A stretch of 64,000 nt of DNA, from IMG/VR virus record IMGVR_UViG_3300045988_056900; one strand, given 5' to 3'. The translations under genes were made by a program, and so were the position numbers. The notes under the pieces are model-generated. The model worked only from the letters and a program-made list of their open reading frames with translations. It was not told where the DNA came from and ran no database searches. Below, piece after piece: positions 2 through 62,701 of this stretch. This DNA comes from a virus. Position 1 is the first letter of the stretch; every line of letters starts with the position of its first letter.

Positions 2-3000
2 CTTAAAGCTGTAGTTATAGTTGGCAATAAGACTAATAATGATTCTGATAGAGCTATAGTCAAGAACTTGGTGGACCCTGACAATCCCTTTGTGATTAGC
101 AACGCAGCTTATGATAAAATGTCCAGTTATGGAGGTTATGAGTTTGCTAAGTTTGATAATACTTTAGATTGGTATAATACAGAAGGCAATGATAGTGTTG
201 AAGTTGTGTCGAGAAATGGGCATAGTATTACTCTAAAAAGATTAACTGGTCCTAATTTTTGGTATTTCCAAAACAGCACATTTAGAGGGCTTATATCGAA
301 TGTTATTCCATTTAAAGTTAATAGTAATAAGAATATAACTGTCATTTGGGACGTACACGGTCTTAGCATTTCAGAAGGAAAAGATAAAAGTGTTAGAATA
401 CAAGAACTTGTATTAAATCCTAATGAAGACAATTATACTAACTTAAAAACACTAAACGAAGAAGAACTAGCTCAAATAGATATTAGTACAAACTCTTTGT
501 ATTACTTATTATGGTTTGATTTGTCTACTCTTGCAGTAGATGAAGAAGTAACTATAGAAATGCTTCCCCTGTTCGAAGGCGCCTTCGTCACCGACGGAAT
601 CGACGACCTGATTACTTCCACCAAGACCGTGCAGGAGATGCTGGGAGGAAGTAATGAGATTACGGTGGTGAGTATGATTCATCAGGTTAAAGATTCATCT
701 AATAATGTATCTTTTACCAATTATATAAGAGGTAGTGCCAATGGCTATTTCCGTAATATCGTGAATAACTACGACAAGACTGGAATATATGGATATACTT
801 CTTCTGACTTAAAGGCTTTGTCAGTTGTAAATAATATATTAGGTGATAAGAATGATTATACGTCTAATGGCGACAATAGAGACTCCATAATCAATGGTAA
901 TTTTAGCGTTCAAGGATATTCGTATAATGACGGTAATAATACTGGTGATTTTAGCTCTGTCGCTTGGTACTGGACAATCATTGCCAACAAGGTACTTACT
1001 ACCGACCAAATCAACCAAGTAATCGCTTACTTCAACTTGGATAGAACGCTCAAATCTGACATCTATTGCAATATTGCTAAGCAGGGCATCACCAACGAGA
1101 ACCACGCAGAGTTTGGCGACAAGCTGATAGACTTTTCAGGCAACGGTAGGGATATTCAGTTGAACAATATTGCTTGGGACGGAGATAGTGGTATAGGTAA
1201 ATATAATTATCCTAATTGGAAAGTCACGGCAACTATTGCCAATACGTATTCAACTATTGTAAATTATCCAACTGTTAATGGTACTTACTCCATTAATGTT
1301 AATGGTGTATCAGAATTGATGCAATCAATAGGGCTGCATTTGGAGATAAAGTACACTACTTCTACGGGAATTATATATAAGGATATAAAACAAGATGGTG
1401 TATATTCATATATTTTACCTGATGGAGCTACGGATTTAACATTAAGATTTGGAGGTATTCCGGGAATTGTAAATGAACCATGCAATATAACCATCACACA
1501 AATCCCTTCCCACGCAGGTGCTCTCTGTCTTGACGGAGTAAATGACTTCGGACAGTTTGTAGGAGACTTGGAATTGAAAGATTATACTTTTATTGCTGAT
1601 AGAGCTTATAGTAGAATAGCTCCATCACAAGTACCATTTATAGCTTCCACACAGACAAATGGGCAAGCTCCATTTCTTATGGAATATTTGAATGAAGATA
1701 CTTATGTTTATCCTCATAGTTTTGGTACTACTACTAAAACTATAAATTTGAATATACAAAGACAAATATCATATCAATCAACTTATGTATATAATGGAAA
1801 TAGTATATCAAAAGGAATATCTGTTGATACAGGTGACGGATTGACTATTGGAAACTCTGGTAGTACAGGAGCACAATATTCTCCATTATGTCTTTGGTCT
1901 TTAATGCTCTTCCCTTATAGTATGTCCGAGTTCTTGATAGAGCGTCAGTTGAAGAAACACAAACTAGGTACGCTGTATCCGGATATGGTGGAGTTTAGAC
2001 CTGTTATCAATAGTAACGTTTTGTTAGATTCTAAACCAACATTCGTTATTCGTGGTACTAGTACTCATCTAAATGCAGGAGATTATGTTCCTGAAAATAG
2101 TCAAATATGGGTAAGTATTAAAATGAATAACATTGCCGATAGAATAACTAAGTTTACTGTTAATGGCAAGACTATTGATATTCCTGAAAATGCTTATAGT
2201 GAAGTCACATTGCAATATGGTTTCCCTTTTGTAATAGATAAATCTCCACAGAAGATTGGTATAACTATTGAACAGGATGAAAACTATGTTTTGTTCAATC
2301 CTGTTATTACAAGTAATGTAGAATATCATAGGTTAGACTTTTATTTAAATAATTATCAAAAGATAATTAATATAGGAGATTATATACCAAAAGATGCTTA
2401 TCTTAGAGCTAATATATATTTAAATAATAATGTTGATGAACTTACAGCGTTTATATTTAACGGAGTAAATATTGGTTATAGAAGAAGTTCCGTTGATGAT
2501 ACGGCTTTTAATATTAGTCATATATATAATTATGATTCTCCACAAGAAGTAAATATTACTATTGATGAGTACATCAGATATGAGGACATTGTGCAGCCGT
2601 ATCCAGTTCTATTGAGATTCAACGATGAAAACGGTAATGAAGTATCTTGGGGAGGTAAGTTTAGAGTAGGCTCTACTATTACTAGAATAGGTTCTGCCGC
2701 TGATTCTAATCTACTTCCTAATATATATAATATATTTGGATTATTATTGAATGACAATCAAGTAACTAGTTCTAAAGTTATTGTTGAAAAAACAATGGTA
2801 TTTAAGGCTAAAAGTGCTTATATATTTGATAATAATGAACCTAACTGTATTCTTTCTCCTAGACTATTGAGAATACCTAACTCTAGCTATAAGATTCTAG
2901 GTTACATTCCCGATATATCCGGTCATGGTAATCATGGAGTTATTCATAACTCGGCTTATGCAGAAGGAAGTGGAGTTAATGAAGATGGTTCATACCAATT

Positions 3001-3469
3001 TGATGGCGTAGACGACTTTGTTACTATTCCTACTACGGTCGGTGGTAAGCAGGTGTTGATGAAAGTTAATTGGGATAGTTCTAATTCTGCTTTACTATAT
3101 GACCAAAGAGGTTATAATAATGAGTTTGCTATCTATAACGGTTCGGCAGATAGTGATGGCAATCCTATTCCGGCTTATCAAGGGAGAAACAATGGACAAA
3201 CATACATTGATGGAATCTTGAATAGTAATATTAAGGCTTCGGAATTGAGAGCTATTACCCATAATATTACTATTACAAATGAGTTAAGTGCAGGGGTAAA
3301 TAAATTTTCTCCTGTTATTGGTTCAAACAGAGCACACAATGCTTACTTTACTAATATGGCATTGTACGACTTCATGCTCTTCGACAACATCTCAACAGAC
3401 GATAAGATTAAAGAGCTGAATGAGTATGTAGGAATAGAAGGCAATACAGAATGGAGAAAGACGAAATAA
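2..3469 (+). CDS. Tail fibre / receptor-binding protein with LamG (concanavalin-A-like lectin) type modules; 5' end lies outside the window
   Basis: The frame stays open from base 2 upstream of the listed ORF 68..3469 and ends in TAA. LamG-style motifs are present: ALCLDGVNDFGQFVGD, YQFDGVDDFVTIPT and GNGRDIQLNNIAWDGDSG. There is no in-frame TAG. Confidence 0.8.
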   Translation, partial: LKAVVIVGNKTNNDSDRAIVKNLVDPDNPFVISNAAYDKMSSYGGYEFAKFDNTLDWYNTEGNDSVEVVSRNGHSITLKRLTGPNFWYFQNSTFRGLISNVIPFKVNSNKNITVIWDVHGLSISEGKDKSVRIQELVLNPNEDNYTNLKTLNEEELAQIDISTNSLYYLLWFDLSTLAVDEEVTIEMLPLFEGAFVTDGIDDLITSTKTVQEMLGGSNEITVVSMIHQVKDSSNNVSFTNYIRGSANGYFRNIVNNYDKTGIYGYTSSDLKALSVVNNILGDKNDYTSNGDNRDSIINGNFSVQGYSYNDGNNTGDFSSVAWYWTIIANKVLTTDQINQVIAYFNLDRTLKSDIYCNIAKQGITNENHAEFGDKLIDFSGNGRDIQLNNIAWDGDSGIGKYNYPNWKVTATIANTYSTIVNYPTVNGTYSINVNGVSELMQSIGLHLEIKYTTSTGIIYKDIKQDGVYSYILPDGATDLTLRFGGIPGIVNEPCNITITQIPSHAGALCLDGVNDFGQFVGDLELKDYTFIADRAYSRIAPSQVPFIASTQTNGQAPFLMEYLNEDTYVYPHSFGTTTKTINLNIQRQISYQSTYVYNGNSISKGISVDTGDGLTIGNSGSTGAQYSPLCLWSLMLFPYSMSEFLIERQLKKHKLGTLYPDMVEFRPVINSNVLLDSKPTFVIRGTSTHLNAGDYVPENSQIWVSIKMNNIADRITKFTVNGKTIDIPENAYSEVTLQYGFPFVIDKSPQKIGITIEQDENYVLFNPVITSNVEYHRLDFYLNNYQKIINIGDYIPKDAYLRANIYLNNNVDELTAFIFNGVNIGYRRSSVDDTAFNISHIYNYDSPQEVNITIDEYIRYEDIVQPYPVLLRFNDENGNEVSWGGKFRVGSTITRIGSAADSNLLPNIYNIFGLLLNDNQVTSSKVIVEKTMVFKAKSAYIFDNNEPNCILSPRLLRIPNSSYKILGYIPDISGHGNHGVIHNSAYAEGSGVNEDGSYQFDGVDDFVTIPTTVGGKQVLMKVNWDSSNSALLYDQRGYNNEFAIYNGSADSDGNPIPAYQGRNNGQTYIDGILNSNIKASELRAITHNITITNELSAGVNKFSPVIGSNRAHNAYFTNMALYDFMLFDNISTDDKIKELNEYVGIEGNTEWRKTK

Positions 3470-3500
3470 TTGATTTAACTAACCCAATATTTATACAAGA

Positions 3501-3776
3501 ATGAAATATATTGTTGTACCAGCCGAGATGCTGATTGATATAACACAAAATACACTAGACGAAATGCATTTAGTATTTCGTTATAGTGTAGATGGAACTG
3601 AAGTAATCATGAAAGTTGCTAACTATGAATTACTATTCCCATCAGCAATGACATTACCTTTAACAGAAGAAGATGAAACTCCGGAAGTAGTATATCCGTA
3701 TCCTACCTATGAAGGAGAAGAATTACAGAAATTGTTAAGCAGTGATAAATGGACTAATAAAGAAGAACAACTATGA
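3501..3776 (+). CDS. Small hypothetical protein, possibly a fibre assembly factor
   Basis: Intact 91-aa ORF. Its TGA stop overlaps the next ATG (ATGA at 3773), which suggests translational coupling. Confidence 0.6.
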   Translation: MKYIVVPAEMLIDITQNTLDEMHLVFRYSVDGTEVIMKVANYELLFPSAMTLPLTEEDETPEVVYPYPTYEGEELQKLLSSDKWTNKEEQL

Positions 3777-4304: not shown

Positions 4305-5546
4305 ATGAAATTAGGAGATAAAAATATTGTAGCTGCATATCTTGGCGATGTTAATGTATTTACTAACTATTATGGAGTTAGCTTTCCTATAGAACCGTAG
4401 AGTACATTATTGACTAGAACCGGGTATATGCCTTGGCATAAAGAACTTCCTATACATTCTAAGATGAAGTCTTGCACGATTACTTCTGATGGAACAGTTA
4501 AATATCTTAATGCTACAGATAGAACCAAGTATGAAGATGGTACTGATAGAGACATGACATTAAATACTATGGTAGAAATACCAGAGTTCTGGTATAAATG
4601 TATGAGAGATGATACTACTGTATATTTGAACTTATATCCAGCAGATCCTCATATTCCAGAAGCTGAACATGTGGAGAAGTTCTATATTTCTGCATATGAA
4701 GCATCTAATGTAGATAATGTGTTAAAATCTATTAACAATGGATCTATTACTCCAGTAGTAAACATTAATAGAACTACTATGCAATCTAGAGCTAGGGCTA
4801 ATAACTCCAGTACTACGAATTGGAACATGTATACTTACAGAGCTCATAGAATACTTACTGTGCTTTACTTAGTTGAATATGCATGTACCAACAGTTAGAA
4901 AGCTTTCAATGCCGAATTAACTGCAGAAGGATATCATCAAGGAGGCTTAGGAGATGGAGTTACTACAGGTAATATTAAAGTAAATGGAGTAGATACTTGG
5001 AGTTGTGTACCTTGCGGAAGTACAGACGAACATGGTAACTTTACTGGAATAACTCCCGTTACAGTTACTAGTACTGATGCAGAAGGTACTGCTACTCAAA
5101 AGACTTATAGTGTTCCTACTTATAGAGGTATTGAGAATCCATTTGGTCATGTATGGAAAAATTGTATAGACACACTTGTACATTTTAATGCGCAAACTAA
5201 TAAAAATGACGTTTATATAAATACCGACTTAAGTACATTTGGATCTACTGATATATCTGATTATGACTATCAATGTAGTACCACTATTACTGAAGGTTAT
5301 AAGAAGAAGTTAGTATACAATGCAGCATTTGATATATTGCCTCCAATAGATGAAGCATTTGGTGGTAGTACTACAACTTATTGGTGTGACTACAATTGGA
5401 CTAATAATAGTACAACTGATAGGCTAACATTAATAGGCGGTGATGCTGGTAATAGCGCGTATGCTGGGTTGCTCCTTGTTCTTTCTGGCGATGGGCTTGG
5501 CCATGCTAGTGCTACTATCGGTACTCGGTTAATCTATATACCGTAA
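4305..5546 (+). CDS. DGR target protein with a C-terminal C-type-lectin / FGE-like variable domain; two in-frame TAGs (4398, 4896)
   Basis: ATG 4305 and ORF fragments 4410.. and 5337.. share one frame. YRGIENPFGHVWKNCID and YWCDYNW are typical of FGE/CLec-fold DGR targets. The VR occupies the last ~35 codons before TAA 5544. Confidence 0.85.
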
Positions 5547-5548
5547 TT
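5436..5548 (+). repeat. DGR variable repeat (VR)
   Basis: 5436-5525 aligns without gaps to 5585-5674. The shared CCGTAATT end is at 5541-5548 and 5681-5688, with a 9-nt indel between the two copies. Confidence 0.9.
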
Positions 5549-5580
5549 TAATTAAAAATATAGATAGGTTGTTCCTCATC

Positions 5581-5688
5581 ATTAAGCAGTAATGCTAGTA
5601 ATAGCACGAATGCTAGGTTACTCAATGTTAATTCTAACAATGAGCTTAGCAATGCTAATGCTAATATCAGTACACTGAATCCGTAATT
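5581..5688 (+). repeat. DGR template repeat (TR), part of the DGR RNA
   Basis: Non-coding copy of the VR, rich in AAT/AAC/AGY codon-equivalents. It lies 35 nt after the target stop and 118 nt before the RT ATG. Confidence 0.9.
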
Positions 5689-5805
5689 AAACAAATAAAG
5701 AAATTAAGAGACTGTAGAGGGAGACCTTACCCCTTGGTAAAAGATAACATACTAATTAACTGTGTTAGTAACTTTTTTTCGTGAAAACTCGGTAATGGAT
5801 TACAG

Positions 5806-6831
5806 ATGAAAAGATATAATAATTTATTTGACAAAATAGTAACTTTAGACAATTTATATCTAGCGGATAAAAGAGCTAGAAGACAAAAACAACATAGACC
5901 TGAAATAATTAATTTTGATAAGAATAGAGAAAAATTACTTTTAGATCTATAGAAGAAATTAATAGATGGTGAATATAAGACTTCTGAATATTATATATTC
6001 AAGATATATGAACCTAAAGAAAGAGAAATATTCAAGCTTCCATACTATCCAGATAGAATAGTACATCATGCTATTATGAACATTATGGAACCTATTTGGG
6101 TATCATCTTTCATTAAAGGAACTTATAGTTGTATAAAAAATCGTGGTATACATAAAGCTCTGAAAGATGTTAAGTTCGCACTGAAAGATGAAGCCAATAC
6201 AAAATACTGTCTTAAGTTAGATGTCAGAAAATTTTATCCTTCAATAGATCATGATATATTAAAATAGTTAATAAGAAGAAAAGTAAAAGATAAGAAACTA
6301 TTAGTTATATTAGATGAAATAATAGATTCTGCATAGGGAGTACCTATTGGCAATTACTTATCACAATTCTTCGCTAATTTATATTTAACATATCTAGATC
6401 ACTGGATCAAAGAAGAAAAACATATAAAATACTATTTCAGATACGCAGATGATATTGTAATACTTCATAGTGATAAAGACTATTTAAGATAGTTGTTTAA
6501 GGATATGAAGTAGTACTTAGAAGAGAGGCTTAACATTAACTTTAAAGATAATTGGCAAATATTTAAAGTTGACGATAGAGGAATAGATTTCGTAGGGTAT
6601 AAGATATTTCATACTCACACTCTGTTAAGAAAGCATATTAAGAAGAACTTCTGTAAAAGAGTAAGTAAATTGAACAAGAAAGATAACTTAGACAAGAGTG
6701 CTTATCAATAGAAAATATGTAGTTATATAGGTTGGATTAAGTACTGTAATGGTCGTAATTTATTTAGTAAAATGACTAAATATAAAGAGCTATTGCGATA
6801 CATATCAAAAAGTAAGAAGAAGAAAACCTAA
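5806..6831 (+). CDS. DGR reverse transcriptase, read through six in-frame TAGs (5950, 6265, 6334, 6490, 6511, 6709)
   Basis: GVPIGNYLSQFFANLYL is the DGR-RT signature (IGxxxSQ) and FRYADDIVIL is the YxDD box. All fragments share one frame and the gene ends at TAA 6829. Confidence 0.9.
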
Positions 6832-6874: not shown

Positions 6875-6908
6875 ATCCCTGTCAGAGCAATCTCTCAGGG
6901 TTTTTTAC
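6875..6908 (+). terminator. Rho-independent terminator after the RT gene
   Basis: Imperfect hairpin CCCTG(TC)AGAG-CAAT-CTCTCAGGG followed by TTTTTT. Confidence 0.7.
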
Positions 6909-6953
6909 TTTCTCAAAATACTTGCTATGATTCACAATATAGGAGATTCAATA

Positions 6954-7457
6954 ATGACTTTGTTCAAAAGTATATTCAGTAGCGCAGGAAGATTCGCTAG
7001 CAGTTGCTTTGCTGGAATAACATCTTTCTTAGCACCAGTTTAGGTAGCTATAATTGCGGCAACTAGTTTTATACTGATAGATGTCATATTAGGTTACAAA
7101 GTATCAAGAAAATACGGGCATGAACATATCGAGTCTTATAAGCTATGGAAAACTATTAATAAAGTATTTGAAGCTACATTATTAATAGTAGGAGCATATG
7201 TTATAGATACTCATATAGTTACTTCATTGAACTTACATGCCGTAGAGTTTGTATCTGGTATGATATGTGGAACTGAATTCATATCCTGGCTAGAATCAAT
7301 GAAGGATTTACATCCGGATTGCAAAATATGTAAAGTATTAGAAAAAGTACTAGGCAAAGTTATCAAAGCTAAAGGTGAAAAGTATCTAGGAGTAGATTTA
7401 GATATAAAAGATTTTAAACCAAATAACAATGATAACAGCAATAATATCAGTAGTTAA
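6954..7457 (+). CDS. Holin-like membrane protein (one in-frame TAG)
   Basis: Several hydrophobic helices (FLAPV-TAG-VAIIAATSFILIDVILGY; ATLLIVGAYVI; FVSGMICGTEFISWLES), resembling Bacteroides-phage holin family proteins. The functional assignment is tentative. Confidence 0.55.
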
Positions 7458-11583: not shown

Positions 11584-12023
11584 AGAAATCTTATACAATA
11601 AGCGACTTCTATGAGTTCTACTTATCTTATATCGAAAGGGAAACTGTATATGATGTTGATTACAAAACATACAGACAAATTGTTGAAGATTACTTTAAGT
11701 ATATCGTAGAAGAGATAATGGAAAATAGTAGAGAATTCAAACTACCATGTAGACTTGGAAATCTAAGTATAGTAAAACGATAGCCTAAAAACTTTGATAA
11801 TAAGAGTCTTAGGATAGACTATCACGAAAGTAAGGTACAAGGTAAAGCTGTGTACTTTATTAATGAACATAGTAATTACTATAAGTTTAGATTCTTATGG
11901 AGTAAAAAGGATTGTTTACTAACAAATAAGACAAAATATTAGTTTGTAGCTTCTCGCGCTAATAAAAGAAAATTGGCTCAAATAATAAAAAATAGAGAAC
12001 ATGATTACGTTGAAATTAGATGA
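11580..12023 (+). CDS. Hypothetical protein, possibly an HU/IHF-like DNA-binding fold (weak)
   Basis: EFKLPCRLGNLSIVKR-TAG-PKNF loosely resembles the HU/IHF beta-arm region. Single frame with two in-frame TAGs, ending at TGA 12021. Confidence 0.45.
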
Positions 12024-12669
12024 TTTATTTGAATTTAAGAAGGATGGGCAATATCAGTTTGAAGATACACCTGGAGTATATGCAATTGTTAATCTTTTGA
12101 ACAATAAAAAATATATAGGATCAAGTAGTTCTATTAGAAGAAGATATCGTCAACATTTTAATGAATTATCAAATGACAAACACGCTAATCCTATATTACA
12201 AAAAGCATTCAATAAATATGGGTAGAAACATTTCGGATTTTTGATACTAGAAACTTGTGAAAATGTGAAAGATACTCTATTATTCATAGAATAGAAATAC
12301 ATAGATGAATTAGGAGATTATAACATATGTAAAATAGCTGGTAAGACTACCGGTGTACATAATAGTGGTCACATTATAACTCAAAAACATAGAGAAATAA
12401 TTGCAGAGTCTAATAGAAATAGAAAATGGAATGAATCAAGTCTAAAGAAAAAATCAGAACAAATGAGAAATAGTCCACTAGTGGCTAAACAAAGAAAAAA
12501 AGTAGACATGTTTTCTATAGACGGGATATATATACAAACATTTGATTCAATTGCTAATGCTGCAACAAGTATGGGTAACACGAATAAAAGAGTAAGTATA
12601 AAAAGATGTTGCCAAGGCAAATACAAATCGGCTTACGGCTTTATATGGAAATATCACAATAACGATTAA
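12001..12669 (+). CDS. GIY-YIG homing endonuclease (free-standing), two in-frame TAGs
   Basis: GVYAIVNLLNNKKYIGSSSSIRRRYRQH is the GIY-YIG core. The C-terminal region looks DNA-binding (VDMFSIDGIYIQTFDSIANAA...YGFIWKY). Fragments 12001.. and 12463.. share a frame. Confidence 0.8.
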
Positions 12670-46246: not shown

Positions 46247-48226
46247 TTAATCCCATAGGCTCATTTGTAACGGTTTTAATTCACGGATTATCTTATAGGC
46301 TTCCATAATGTAATACCTATAATTAATCTTTCTCTCTTCAATTGGTTTATCGTCTAAGTAATTTAATAAAGTAACACCAGATGCAGTAAGCATATTCTGA
46401 TACTGTTTTTCTTTTGCAACAAATATCTTTTTACCTACATATGGTTCATCATATTCTATAATTTCACCTTCTTTGTGTCCTGTTGGTTTCCATTTCCATA
46501 AATAGGCACCATTAGTACTTGCATAGAAACGATTAGTCCTTTGTTGTTCTTTATTATTATACTCAACATGCCATTGTTTACCAGTCTTTTCAGCCATTAG
46601 AAAGTCTCTAATGTCTTGGCAACCTTTTATAGTTTCTTCTACTGGTACTCCGTTCTTAAAAAAGTTTATTACTGCTTTCGGTATGATCTTCGGAGTTAGA
46701 CCTTTCCCTAATTTCACAGTAGTAATAAACATACCCTTTTCTTTTACTTTATCATCTTCAGTAATAGCAAAGTAGTCATTTATAGCATATTGATACATAG
46801 CCTTAAAACGTTCTTCTTCTAAAGTAAGTTTAGTAAGTTGTTCCCATTCTCTGCATACTTTGTTTACACTATCATATACAGATTTTTTAAGTAATACAAA
46901 CAGACCATCTGTATTAGCTTGGACGATTCGACATCCTAATTGGGTTAGTTTTTCAGCTAGCATTAGTAATAGTAACTGCCCATTTATACGTATTTGCATT
47001 ACTGCAAATGGACTATAACAGAAATTATGTGGATTCTGTAAGTTACCTGATAATCCATTGAGAGCAAGCTTTAAGGTTTCGTTTTTAACCTTATTGCCAT
47101 TGTGTTTAGCTTCGATGCGCTCATCTTTAATTTGTCTATATACTTCTAGAAATTCAGGTCCTAAATGTTTAGGATAGAACCCATATTCTATTAGCATACT
47201 TGGATATAGTGATGCAACATCTATATCAATGAGCATTTCATCTTCTTTTGGTATAACTATTTCAGGATCATTCACTGAATGAATTCCTCCAACTCCTACA
47301 GAATATCTTAATCCTTCAAATATGAATTTATTTTCATATCCTTTTCTTCCTGGAGATACTATTTGACTTTTCATATCATCTAGTACTTTTTGAAGTATAG
47401 GACTATCATACTTAATAAATGGTAGGATTACCTTATTTAAAGGTATTACATCCATTGGAGATCTTAAATCTTTAATATCATACCAGGTTTGACCTGTCTT
47501 TTCAAGATATTTCTGAGTTAAAATCTTCATTCCAATGTTTACTCCGTCTTTACTAAGTACTCTTACTCCGTATTCATCTTCAATAGCTAACCTTAAATCT
47601 ACATCTTTTTTACATCTATTGAGTAACTCTTCAGTAGAATTAACATCATTAATATTATACTCAATCATTGAATCTATTTGATTTTCAGGTAAATCTGCCT
47701 GCCAATCTGCAACAAATTCCTGTACATTTCTGTACTGCATTGTTACTTGAATTTCTTTCAAACCTACTCTTAACTTATTGCTATAAAGCATAGTAAGAAT
47801 ATCAAACGAATCAAAACAAATCATATACTTCCACTTACTCCAAGCTCTAATATCGTCTTCACTTGAAGTAGTAATTACTTTACTTAAATTAAATATAGAT
47901 CTACATATATCTCTATATCCTTTGTATTTCATTACAACATAATAATCTATTATATAATTTATAATAGGATTATCATAATGAAGATTATTATAACCACAAA
48001 ATAATTTATTAGTATTTAACTGAATTTTTGTAGTATATAAGTCTCCGAAAGTATAGTCTGTATTAACTGTATGAAAGAAATTGACTAATTCATCTAATTG
48101 ATTTCTTCTGCAAGATATTTCAAATTTATGCAATTCACCTGTTTCTGTATTTTTTACAGTACAATGGAAAACATTGGGGAATACCTCAATATCATATACA
48201 TAAACAATCTTATCTCGTATAATCAT
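46247..48226 (-). CDS. Family B DNA polymerase
   Basis: Exo I VYDIEVF, Exo II YNNLHYDNPII, Exo III YNINDVNSTEEL, motif A DVASLYPSML, motif B KLALNGLSG, motif C ANTDGLFV. Confidence 0.9.
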   Translation of the reverse strand: MIIRDKIVYVYDIEVFPNVFHCTVKNTETGELHKFEISCRRNQLDELVNFFHTVNTDYTFGDLYTTKIQLNTNKLFCGYNNLHYDNPIINYIIDYYVVMKYKGYRDICRSIFNLSKVITTSSEDDIRAWSKWKYMICFDSFDILTMLYSNKLRVGLKEIQVTMQYRNVQEFVADWQADLPENQIDSMIEYNINDVNSTEELLNRCKKDVDLRLAIEDEYGVRVLSKDGVNIGMKILTQKYLEKTGQTWYDIKDLRSPMDVIPLNKVILPFIKYDSPILQKVLDDMKSQIVSPGRKGYENKFIFEGLRYSVGVGGIHSVNDPEIVIPKEDEMLIDIDVASLYPSMLIEYGFYPKHLGPEFLEVYRQIKDERIEAKHNGNKVKNETLKLALNGLSGNLQNPHNFCYSPFAVMQIRINGQLLLLMLAEKLTQLGCRIVQANTDGLFVLLKKSVYDSVNKVCREWEQLTKLTLEEERFKAMYQYAINDYFAITEDDKVKEKGMFITTVKLGKGLTPKIIPKAVINFFKNGVPVEETIKGCQDIRDFLMAEKTGKQWHVEYNNKEQQRTNRFYASTNGAYLWKWKPTGHKEGEIIEYDEPYVGKKIFVAKEKQYQNMLTASGVTLLNYLDDKPIEERKINYRYYIMEAYKIIRELKPLQMSLWD

Positions 48227-48246
48227 AATTAATAATGTTAGTTTGA

Positions 48247-48303
48247 GTCTGTGGAGGGAATCGAACCCTCATTTAACAGTTTTTCCATTTAAACTACACA
48301 GAC
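48247..48303 (-). ncRNA. tRNA-like element lacking an anticodon arm (57 nt)
   Basis: GTCTGTG-TA-GTTT-AAATGGAA-AAAC-TGTTAAAT-GAGGG-TTCGATT-CCCTC-CACAGAC. It has a perfect 7-bp acceptor stem, a D arm with GG and a canonical T arm, but only 8 nt where the anticodon arm should be. Confidence 0.55.
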
Positions 48304-58686: not shown

Positions 58687-59101
58687 TTACCACTTAGTTT
58701 TATATTTATTAAAATACTACGAGGCGACTGTCACTATTTCTAGCGCTAAAATCTATTTCACAACCCCATCATTAGTAACAGTTTCTCTTTAAATAAAGAG
58801 TTGTTAACCAGGATACTGTATGCTCCCCTGGGGATATCTCACGCTGCTAAGCGTGTATAATCCATTACATAACTTGTATTGCCAGTTATCTGCTTATTGA
58901 CCTATTCTACTTCACATTGTCGCAGTCAAATGCCTAGATGCCCCATTTAAAGTAGTACTCTTACAAAATTTAACTTATAGTTTGAGTACTACTCCCGATC
59001 TTCCTATCGCTGTTAATGAAAAAACTCTTAGAGAGAAATCGAAAATTAGCGTAAGATTTCTATACGGGCCTCTTATTATTCTTGCTTATTCCATTTTTTG
59101 T

Positions 59102-59157
59102 GGAGCATGAGGGAGTCGAACCCTCGTCCTAACGACTGATTCATAGACCTAACAGTC
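59102..59157 (-). ncRNA. tRNA 3'-half-like element
   Basis: GACTG-(14-nt loop TTAGGTCTATGAAT)-CAGTC-GTTAGGAC-GAGGG-TTCGACT-CCCTC-ATGCTCC. No adjacent 5' acceptor strand or D arm. Confidence 0.4.
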
Positions 59158-59788
59158 AATGAGTTTATAAGATTAATTGAAGTATAACTCGCGTACAGAA
59201 TTAAGCCATTCTTCCTGCTTTATTATTTAACACAGTTCACAGCACTCTCTACAGGTGAGCCTTCGTTATGTTATACAATATCCCTGCTATTTTTACAATT
59301 AATCTTATATTGTGACTAGGTAGGCGACCAAACCTACCTAGCCTATGGTCTTTTACGATATTTAAAGTATTCTCATACTATTAATGCCTTGATAACCTGT
59401 CTTGGAAGTATAGAATACTTTTCAGCTTCTATACGGCATGATGTCTAGCATCGCACTATTCCAAAAATGCCGACTTGATATCATAAGAATGCTATTGCAT
59501 AATATACTCAAAGAGTATAGAATCTGTATTTATATATTGCGCAATTTATATATACATCCTCATGATCTTAGGCACATGATCAGTGGCACGTTGTCATAAT
59601 GTCCTACTCTGGCATCGGTTGTATTACTACACCTTACACTTGTTGTATGCATGTCAATTCATGCATGAGCTGCATCTTCTGGTACTTAGCACATAAAATG
59701 TCATCACCACCTATTAGCTACTTTCTCTAGTTAGGTTATATAGTCAGTATTTCTACTGCTAAAACACTATACCTGGACTATGCGCGGA

Positions 59789-60567: not shown

Positions 60568-60776
60568 ATTTTTGATAATTTGGTTTTAGAATTAAAAAAA
60601 GAACTGTTCTGTATATTCCTATCTCTTATTCTACAGATAACCCCTATCCTTCTCTCCCTTTATCTGTAGATTTACAGATTGCCGTTGAATAGCCATTACA
60701 TAGTAATATGTATTAGGGTTTTGGTATATTTACAGTTCTTTCGGGTTGATTGGAATCCACCATACTAACAATTTAA

Positions 60777-61046: not shown

Positions 61047-61404
61047 TCATAGGTTTACATATTCTTGCAAATTCTTTTGCTGTATCCCTGTCTTTGAATT
61101 CCAAGGAATTACCGACAGCAGCATAAGCACCAGCATGGCCGAGCTCATAGTGCGAACCAACAACGAGCAAGCCCGAAGATTTTCTATTATCTGTATAGTT
61201 CCAACCCCATATATAATACCTTATCTCTTTTGGATCTATTGTTGTAGGTTTCCAGCCTTCATTTAAAGCTTTTGCAACAGTTTCTAACTTGATGAAGTTC
61301 CTAGTTTCATCTGTTAATTTGTAACTTTTATAATTAGCTACAGGACGAAGACCTAGTATTTTACATGCGTCTTCATAAGGTTTCTCTTTACTTAACTTAA
61401 TCAT
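60991..61404 (-). CDS. Hypothetical protein
   Basis: Intact 137-aa ORF. Confidence 0.7.
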   Translation of the reverse strand: MIKLSKEKPYEDACKILGLRPVANYKSYKLTDETRNFIKLETVAKALNEGWKPTTIDPKEIRYYIWGWNYTDNRKSSGLLVVGSHYELGHAGAYAAVGNSLEFKDRDTAKEFARICKPMIVKHLFGRDDHENFKFNF

Positions 61405-62223: not shown

Positions 62224-62701
62224 TTTTACATAGGCTTTAAAATTGTTAGTTAATAAATATGATGACGTCTGTATACAGCACTATATACAGAATAATTTAC
62301 CGCAGTGCTACGGAGATTTGAGACTAATACTATAAAGCAATAGCGCTCTATTGCACATCTGTTATTAAAGAAATCATTTCCACATATTACTATGTTTAAT
62401 TTAAACCCTCACATGTTTTAGGATTACTCCAGAGTACAAGCAGAAAAGGCTGTCAAACCTAATCTTATCACTCACCTGATTTTAACGTCCGCACGATCGT
62501 AGTATTTGCAATTATCAGTACTAATTAGAGTAATTGCCACCCTTCTTCTCCCGCTTAAAAATACTACTTACGCCCCACAGGCTTGTCATCTTCTGAAGAC
62601 TAGTCTATTCTCACGAACAAACTAGTTGTGTCGAAATTTTTAAACCATTTCTATGCAAAATGCTTCAAAAAACTGTAATAACTTGTTTTAATTATTACTC
62701 T

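Follow-up and report, generated by a model that had tools for sequence, protein, structure and literature searches.

We examined a stretch of viral DNA from IMG/VR record IMGVR_UViG_3300045988_056900, 64,000 nucleotides long and referred to as the window, in which an earlier note made from the letters alone had described a complete diversity-generating retroelement (DGR) aimed at a lectin-fold tail protein. The tail protein target stands, but the description was incomplete, as it missed a second variable repeat in a distant early gene. The features on which the argument rests are listed here by position, with the variable repeats abbreviated VR1 and VR2, the template repeat TR, the reverse transcriptase RT, and TAG codons read as Gln.

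4305..5546, plus strand: target gene 1, a tail protein of 413 aa (phrog_5302 'tail protein', E 3e-73), with TAG codons at 4398 and 4896
5434..5526, plus strand: VR1, with 22 mismatches to the TR, all at TR adenines
5583..5675, plus strand: TR, non-coding and adenine-rich, with AAT/AAC/AGY codons in the VR frame
5723..5812, plus strand: structured spacer RNA between TR and RT, matching Rfam RF03020 RT-17
5806..6831, plus strand: DGR reverse transcriptase of 341 aa (RVT_1, E 2e-17; phrog_1423, E 1e-121), with six TAG codons
60991..61404, minus strand: target gene 2, a 137-aa protein of the early block with no in-frame TAG and seven hypervariable residues (81-98)
61110..61171, minus strand: VR2 core, aligned with gaps to two-thirds of the TR, at its 3' side, and read in the codon frame of VR1

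Megablast placed the region in Buchavirus (Crassvirales; Suoliviridae; Loutivirinae; "delta" crAss-like phage). The RefSeq genome cr60_1 is 92% identical across the full query length, and cr109_1 is 98% identical over the parts that it shares with the window, which amount to 66% of the 3.5-kb query; the VR2 region also matches Buchavirus RefSeq genomes by BLAST. The window further carries traits of the Crassvirales type, namely a giant open reading frame (ORF) of 4453 aa, a split of late and early genes between the strands, and a CrAss_Ring_2 domain (E 7e-82). On nucleotide identity and gene order, we assign it to Crassvirales, Suoliviridae, Buchavirus.

A repeat scan recovered VR1 and the TR as a direct repeat whose two copies start 149 nt apart. 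Re-deriving the gapless 90-nt alignment given by the earlier note (5436-5525 against 5585-5674), we recounted 22 mismatches, every one at a TR adenine (14 A>G, 4 A>C, 4 A>T); the TR holds 33 adenines in these 90 nt, and the hypergeometric probability that all 22 mismatches land on them is 3.6e-13. The gapless run without a non-A mismatch in fact reaches 93 nt (5434-5526 / 5583-5675). Read in the VR frame, the TR begins AGC AGT AAT GCT AGT AAT AGC ACG AAT ..., which bears out its reported richness in AAT, AAC and AGY codons, and no adenine substitution in this frame can create TAA or TGA. VR1 covers about 31 codons near the 3' end of target gene 1, ending six codons short, with its last base 20 nt before the stop.

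At the 3' boundary of the repeats, the 9-nt length difference before a shared CCGTAATT, noted earlier as unusual, is real, but it sits 3' of the point where VR/TR homology ends and, like the shared CCGTAATT, is not kept in other clades; we therefore rejected CCGTAATT as a functional element for the initiation of mutagenic homing (IMH). In relatives, both VRs end in GTCGGTACT and the TR ends in GTCAGTACA, with the sequence beyond diverging. From these fixed A>G and A>T differences we infer the boundary between the IMH of the VRs and the IMH* of the TR.

The RT carries both motifs described for it, IGNYLSQ at 6346-6366 (GxxxSQ) and YADD at 6442-6453. Its best match among solved structures is 8ub7_A (E 2.7e-51, residues 2-324), a chain that tblastn identifies as Brt of Bordetella phage BPP-1, and group II intron and retron RTs match at E 1e-19 or weaker. 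Judged by motifs and nearest solved structure, the enzyme belongs to the DGR clade. Between the TR and this gene lies the structured spacer, which scores 40.8 bits against RF03020 RT-17 (E 5.9e-6), marginally above the gathering score of 40.4, and 38.4 bits against RF03021 RT-18, just below gathering. RNAalifold on the spacer in 15 relatives predicts 13 pairs, six of them with compensatory changes, and in the TTACC/GGTAA hairpin three of the sequences replace A-U by G-C. By analogy with the DGR RNA of BPP-1, the spacer is presumably the 3' part of the DGR RNA, which would position and prime the RT.

Activity of the element was judged by comparison between genomes. The RT has 356 relatives in IMG/VR, for which 80 loci were fetched. 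Of these, 72 extend far enough upstream, and most of the 72 have a VR/TR pair, mismatched at A alone, upstream of the RT. Within the clade of the window (L003-L023), a repeat pair could be aligned in 20 relatives. Eighteen of them carry an unvarying TR, present as two alleles, and the VRs of these 18 differ from their own TR at adenines, exclusively so in 16, the other two showing one extra change each; a single pair among the 18 has a common VR. A constant TR beside VRs that differ at A-templated sites argues that the element is active in the lineage. The TR of the window also carries a private base (AATATC, where relatives have AATGTC), and the same base is found in its VR1 (ACTATC), which argues that VR1 was rewritten after that change arose in the TR.

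These comparisons bear on the simplest alternative, that the repeats are a plain tandem duplication that diverged by AT/GC mutation bias beside an unrelated retron or group II intron RT. Pfam gives the enzyme only as generic RVT_1, and RefSeq labels for the cr60_1 homologue include 'Intron reverse transcriptase' next to 'Reverse transcriptase', as this explanation would have it. However, all 22 differences lie at the adenines of one copy; across genomes the TR is constant and the VR varies; the RT is far nearer BPP-1 Brt than group II intron or retron RTs; and the locus has no intron RNA domain, its Rfam match being RT-17. The A-only differences, the comparison of TR and VR across genomes and the structure matches of the RT refute tandem duplication, to which we give next to no credence, in favour of a DGR.

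To search for further VRs, the TR was scanned over both strands with A as a wildcard. In the window, VR1 matches at 59 of 59 non-A positions and the next hit, 61113-61205 on the minus strand, at 39 of 59, against a background of 14 +/- 3.6. This is the second VR, with its core at 61110-61171 (-); the same scan of the window and of the complete cr60_1 genome gave VR1 and VR2 and no third. BLAST alignments to RefSeq relatives break exactly at VR2, where about 70 nt are hypervariable between conserved flanks, and across 39 IMG/VR homologues the entropy peaks over this segment. The variation falls on codons that read AAY in the TR and, within them, on the first two bases. At the protein level, the 137-aa protein has 966 homologous protein clusters and is near-invariant elsewhere than at positions 81-98, where each of the seven hypervariable positions takes 12 or more residue types.

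Where a genome carries both loci, VR2 can be compared with its own TR. Over a 54-nt core, 18 of 23 such genomes show 0-1 non-A and 10-17 A mismatches; among the other five, two have 2 and 7 non-A mismatches, and in two of the remaining three the TR is destroyed. Over a 60-nt core in 21 genomes, VR2 departs from its own TR at 29 of 839 non-A sites (3.5%) and at 301 of 421 A sites (71%), and VR1, in the same genomes and core, at 6 of 839 and 300 of 421. At lineage-specific non-A TR sites, VR2 follows the TR of its own genome (1617 own versus 139 other, in pairwise counts that are phylogenetically non-independent). These sequence comparisons show that the same TR diversifies VR2 in the Buchavirus lineage.

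The resemblance of VR2 to the TR could instead reflect common ancestry or convergence with the C-terminal motif of the lectin fold, its variation having arisen by ordinary positive selection. Some 48 residues of the 137-aa protein do align with target 1, at a low probability of 31%; VR2 of the window has non-A mismatches and an indel; and VR2 sits mid-protein rather than at the C-terminus. Against this explanation, VR2 in the 21 genomes agrees with its own TR at 96.5% of non-A sites versus 29% of A sites, it tracks lineage-specific TR substitutions, and its variation is limited to the first two bases of TR AAY codons, while ordinary selection would not track an untranslated repeat 45-55 kb away. 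We consider selection without a DGR very unlikely, and treat VR2 as a repeat that the TR has rewritten.

A different doubt concerns the present state of the element, which in this genome could be a fossil: an intact-looking cassette in which retrohoming has ceased and the VR/TR differences record past activity. Loss and decay of the DGR are common in the genus (cr109_1 has no TR or RT, and VR2 is deleted in cr113_1), the TR is destroyed in three relatives, and 4 contigs carry the exact VR1 protein of the window, 5 a near-identical form of its VR2 variant. On the other side, reading TAG as Gln gives an RT ORF of full length with its catalytic motifs preserved, the TR retains its 33 adenines, no non-A mismatch is found across 93 nt, VR1 holds the private TR allele of the window, and the RT-17 RNA is intact. 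We regard a fossil as improbable, if the least improbable of the alternatives, and retain the reading of a DGR that is current at VR1.

Target 1 had no Pfam or PDB match, either with phmmer or with a profile of 24 diverse homologues. An exhaustive search found its module of about 390 aa forming the C-terminal domain in 1,579 representative proteins, of which many are far longer. An AlphaFold2 (AF2) model on the homologue alignment (pLDDT 84, pTM 0.87) matched, by Foldseek against the PDB, TaqVP (5vf4, E 3.7e-8, prob 1.0) and Mtd (1yu0, E 3.7e-3), and the significant matches were DGR variable proteins only. [quoted passage not shown] VR1 encodes 10 hypervariable residues (380-404). Among 119 homologues 95-100% identical to target 1, the C-terminal 40-mers are all different, and entropy is 0.99 bits per site at residues 376-413 versus 0.03 elsewhere.

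The second target is harder to place. BLASTP found nothing in common between the 137-aa protein and target 1 outside the VR, and hhalign aligned its residues 57-105 with the last 48 residues of target 1 at the 31% probability given above. Pfam and a profile search of the PDB gave no match, and its sole PHROG match, over residues 8-73, is phrog_11581, whose function is unannotated. No obvious signal peptide or membrane segment can be read from its sequence. In an AF2 model that is itself unreliable (pLDDT 47), the variable residues lie on a beta-hairpin between helical ends. Because VR2 is mid-protein and not C-terminal, it departs from the DGR norm of a VR at the 3' end of a gene for a lectin fold. 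As a guess, the protein might act as a diversified binder inside the cell, directed for example at a variable host target of defence or takeover. The papers searched yielded no report of a second, early-gene DGR target in crAss-like phages, an absence that is not proof.

Taken together, the locus is very probably an avd-less crAss-like DGR of a Buchavirus phage, whose TR diversifies VR1 and, in the lineage, VR2. The element is complete, as first described, and the data show its repeat anatomy, its adenine specificity, the RT class, the target fold as a model, the RNA motif, the reading of TAG as Gln and the diversification of both VRs between genomes. Several observations pull the other way. 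The VR2 core of the window has two synonymous non-A changes (TCT>TCG, CTT>CTC), VR2 contains a 6-nt insertion (an extra NNTGCT unit), and its boundary reads GGTAAT instead of GGTACT; moreover, the window's variant of the 137-aa protein recurs near-unchanged (H90N alone within the VR) on 5 contigs that differ elsewhere. The AF2 model of that protein, on a shallow 28-sequence alignment, leaves it with no assigned fold or function. No GC-rich IMH or convincing cruciform was found, weak hairpins only being predicted, and none of the 33 plausible ORFs of 70-220 aa that were scanned with Pfam in the window had a PF05635-like (23S_rRNA_IVP) match to Avd. Finally, activity in the genome of the window itself is extrapolated from comparison between genomes, not from reads. 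The non-A changes, the insertion, the GGTAAT boundary and the near-identity on 5 contigs argue that VR2 is inactive in the window; it is a live target in the lineage that has probably become frozen in the sub-lineage of the window.

A DGR accessory protein (Avd or HRDC) is typical, not universal, and the enzyme of BPP-1 requires Avd. The earlier note was right that no avd-like ORF lies between target and RT: the 259-nt gap from the target stop (5546) to the RT start (5806) holds the TR and the structured RNA and no ORF. Nor was Avd found in the roughly 40 kb of genome beyond the window, which was checked by the product names and notes of cr60_1 in RefSeq only. Its absence is, however, the published norm in crAss-like phages. 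Alpha crAss-like phages have the order target gene, VR (IMH), TR (IMH*), RT without avd, assigned to lineage 3 of Wu et al. (Morozova et al. 2020, PMC7290462), and about a quarter of DGRs have no accessory gene (PMC7290462). Zeta crAss-like phages include seven RT genes with amber suppression (PMC12386605), DGR cassettes are stated for Suoliviridae (PMC11054128), and two-target phage DGRs are known from the tentaclins (PMC10743442); the main text of Yutin et al. 2021 does not mention DGRs. The cassette therefore belongs to a known avd-less crAss-like type, with close relatives annotated in RefSeq, and the absence of avd, the TAG recoding and the 9-nt indel, all first listed as unusual, are ordinary for it.

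The closest parallel is with crAssphage LMMB and other alpha crAss-like phages (Intestiviridae genus I), which share the order target-VR-TR-RT, the position at the end of the structural module, the lack of avd and a lectin-fold tail target, and whose related genomes also frequently hold incomplete cassettes (PMC7290462). The likeness to lineage 3 (Wu et al. 2018) is one of architecture. The present element differs from these in belonging to Suoliviridae, in reading TAG as Gln in both genes and in having a distant second VR in a non-structural gene. DGRs of Zeta and Epsilon crAss-like phages (PMC12386605, PMC11054128) are likewise mostly avd-less with lectin-fold tail fibre targets, show amber suppression in the RT (Zeta), and occur as complete and decayed cassettes side by side in related genomes. 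However, multiple TR-VR pairs are reported among them for two Zeta phages only, both with Avd, and neither paper describes a single TR that serves a distant early gene.

With BPP-1 (mtd-avd-TR-brt), the element shares its nearest solved-structure RT, adenine-specific mutagenesis, a structured spacer RNA 3' of the TR, and a lectin-fold receptor-binding target with a C-terminal VR. It differs in lacking Avd and a GC-rich IMH or evident cruciform, in having the TR directly after the target, in having two targets, and in an RT whose translation needs stop-codon suppression. Quimbyvirus ('Quimbyviridae', Benler et al. 2021, PMC8008677) offers a precedent for a distant non-structural target, a gut Bacteroidetes phage DGR with two VRs, one beside the RT in the structural module and the other distal, on the opposite strand, in a presumably non-structural protein. 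There, both targets can be recognised as C-type lectins, the second sits in an island related to defence and frameshifts split the RT, whereas here the second target is a 137-aa protein without a recognisable domain, with its VR mid-protein, among small early genes and ribozyme-like RNAs. As to the spacer, the motifs RT-1 to RT-19 were reported near RT genes, possibly those of retroelements such as DGRs, with their function left open (Weinberg et al. 2017, PMC5737381). The matches to RF03020 RT-17 and RF03021 RT-18 at 5723-5812 lie directly upstream of the RT start and overlap it, as the family is defined; the difference is that here the motif stands exactly between a verified TR and a DGR RT.

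Reading through TAG raises the sequence held in ORFs of at least 100 aa from 45 to 72 kb and makes the 4453-aa ORF appear. The plus-strand late block (1-38.7 kb) has 203 TAG in 12,646 codons, and the minus-strand early block 1 in 5,958. The six in-frame TAGs reported for the RT (5950, 6265, 6334, 6490, 6511, 6709) and the two reported for the target (4398, 4896) are all present. In an alignment of the RT from 80 relatives, 43 sequences have TAG and 37 have CAR at the invariant Q of the GxxxSQ motif, and three more columns are Q or TAG alone, save for His in 5 sequences at one of them. The genome cr60_1 has a tRNA with anticodon CTA just upstream of its terminase gene; within the window, ARAGORN found no suppressor tRNA with this anticodon, and synteny with cr60_1 would put it beyond the window end. 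As TAG and Q alternate in the RT columns and cr60_1 carries the CTA-anticodon tRNA, we read TAG as Gln and the window as containing a TAG-to-Gln recoded late module.

The earlier note had also suggested that the TAGs restrict the DGR to the late state of translation, and counted this as unusual. Late-only translation of the RT is a reasonable deduction from the module, but nothing in it is peculiar to the DGR: the RT has 17.6 TAG per 1000 codons, as against the late-block mean of 16.1, and RTs of relatives have 0 to 9 in-frame TAGs, 5 of 80 having none. Recoding is thus a property of the late module, and on the same grounds the RT TAG codons were rejected as a DGR-specific regulator. Within the module, TAG use is uneven, the first two late-strand ORFs (119-3776; 1116 aa and 91 aa) having zero and the late genes downstream (3773-38713, +) having 5-53 per 1000 codons.

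We propose that the target-TR-RT unit would be transcribed together with the late genes, and that the RT (5806-6831) would be translated only once the suppressor tRNA-Gln(CUA), encoded outside the window, becomes available. The RT would then bind the TR RNA (5583-5675) via the RT-17 spacer (5723-5812) and copy cDNA with misincorporation opposite adenines, and this cDNA would replace VR1 (5434-5526) at the 3' end of the gene for the lectin-fold tail protein. Some 10 surface residues of the tail protein would be randomised, and with them, as we propose, its receptor specificity. The fixed differences between GTCGGTACT of the VRs and GTCAGTACA of the TR would act as IMH and IMH*, protecting the TR from overwriting. 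In the lineage, the same TR would rewrite VR2 (61110-61171, -), changing 7 residues of a predicted beta-hairpin in an early, probably non-virion 137-aa protein; in the sub-lineage of the window, VR2 would apparently no longer be rewritten, with VR1 remaining current.

Few viruses of the human gut are as abundant as crAss-like phages. By itself the cassette contributes little, confirming that avd-less, amber-recoded DGRs are standard equipment of such phages; what is new is the second VR, in a small early protein hitherto annotated as hypothetical, which the same TR rewrites in many Buchavirus genomes. The reach of this second target in Buchavirus is about 1,000 protein clusters, and since the TR also rewrites an early protein, DGR diversification in Buchavirus is not solely about adsorption. 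As a candidate diversified intracellular binder, the 137-aa protein is compact and amenable to experiment. RT-17, an orphan among Rfam motifs, is tied to DGR RNA by its position between a verified TR and a DGR RT. Standard DGR finders, which work with the standard genetic code and within 10 kb, would overlook the RT, with its six TAGs, as well as VR2, 55 kb away.

A bolder possibility, which we hold only tentatively, is that one TR diversifies two functionally unrelated proteins in Buchavirus, a virion receptor-binding protein and a tiny (135-137 aa) early cytoplasmic protein, the latter having its VR mid-chain in a scaffold not recognisable as a C-type lectin and representing a new minimal DGR target fold. 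If so, the early protein could plausibly be programmed to bind a host factor that varies, for instance one involved in defence. As the RT would be translated only once TAG suppression has set in, new variants of this protein would arise late in an infection and serve in the following one. A natural 'self-homing' route to DGR death would then be seen in relatives with an adenine-mutagenised TR.

The lineage also holds natural controls (RT and TR deleted, VR2 deleted, TR 'burnt out', VR2 frozen), which should be useful for studying Avd-free target recognition and the death of DGRs. In cr109_1 (L002), TR and RT are cleanly lost, the tail protein being followed by the holin, and both VRs are kept; cr113_1 (L085) has lost most of the cassette, and a deletion of about 100 nt removes VR2. 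These two are natural DGR-minus controls within one genus. In three other relatives, the TR locus is adenine-depleted (L011:2779-2871; L013:2364-2456, approximately; L027:2779-2871), with 5, 2 and 10 adenines left, respectively, against 32-33 normally. Their RTs are intact and 83-96% identical, a TR-type 3' flank is present in all, and the 5' TAAGCAGT lead-in is visible in L011. The depleted TR is in no case a copy of VR1 of the same genome, and that of L013 also has T>G changes. This looks like mutagenic self-homing into the TR ('TR burn-out'), which would kill the DGR, the alternative being an assembly artefact.

Two further features follow the unit of target, TR and RT downstream.

6877..6906, plus strand: hairpin and T-run after the RT stop (CCCTG..AGAG-CAAT-CTCT-CAGGG then TTTTTT), read from the sequence
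6927-7457: holin gene (PF05105, E 3.5e-8)

The hairpin is likely an intrinsic terminator that ends the unit before the holin gene. It was missed by a simple scanner because its stem is bulged; the simple scanner also found no promoter excess.

Target gene 2 is flanked by RAGATH-9 and Hatchet ribozyme matches, among small early genes. The other features noted in the window are as follows.

62474-62600, minus strand: Hatchet self-cleaving ribozyme (Rfam, 99.8 bits)
60597-60753, minus strand: RAGATH-9 (Rfam, 129.5 bits)
59564-59665, minus strand: RAGATH-20 (Rfam, 122 bits)
58748-59194, minus strand: permuted tmRNA call by ARAGORN, with tag peptide GNTSYVMDYTRLAA
48246-48303, minus strand: Rfam tRNA match of 58 nt (44.9 bits), absent from the ARAGORN calls
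12001-12669, plus strand: ORF of 222 aa within the structural module, flanked by the region of tail ring protein 2 and by the structural gene that comes next

At 58748-59194, the match to Rfam tmRNA_permuted reaches 40.3 bits, short of the gathering score of 47; RefSeq annotates the homologous stretch of cr60_1 as a tmRNA overlapping a tRNA-Leu(UAA), and ARAGORN called no tRNA-Leu in the window. The match at 48246-48303 falls within the gap immediately upstream, relative to transcription, of a 659-aa ORF (46247-48226) and may be a truncated or unusual tRNA. The product of 12001-12669 looks like a putative homing endonuclease of the GIY-YIG type, from a YAIVN...YIGSS motif recognised by eye.

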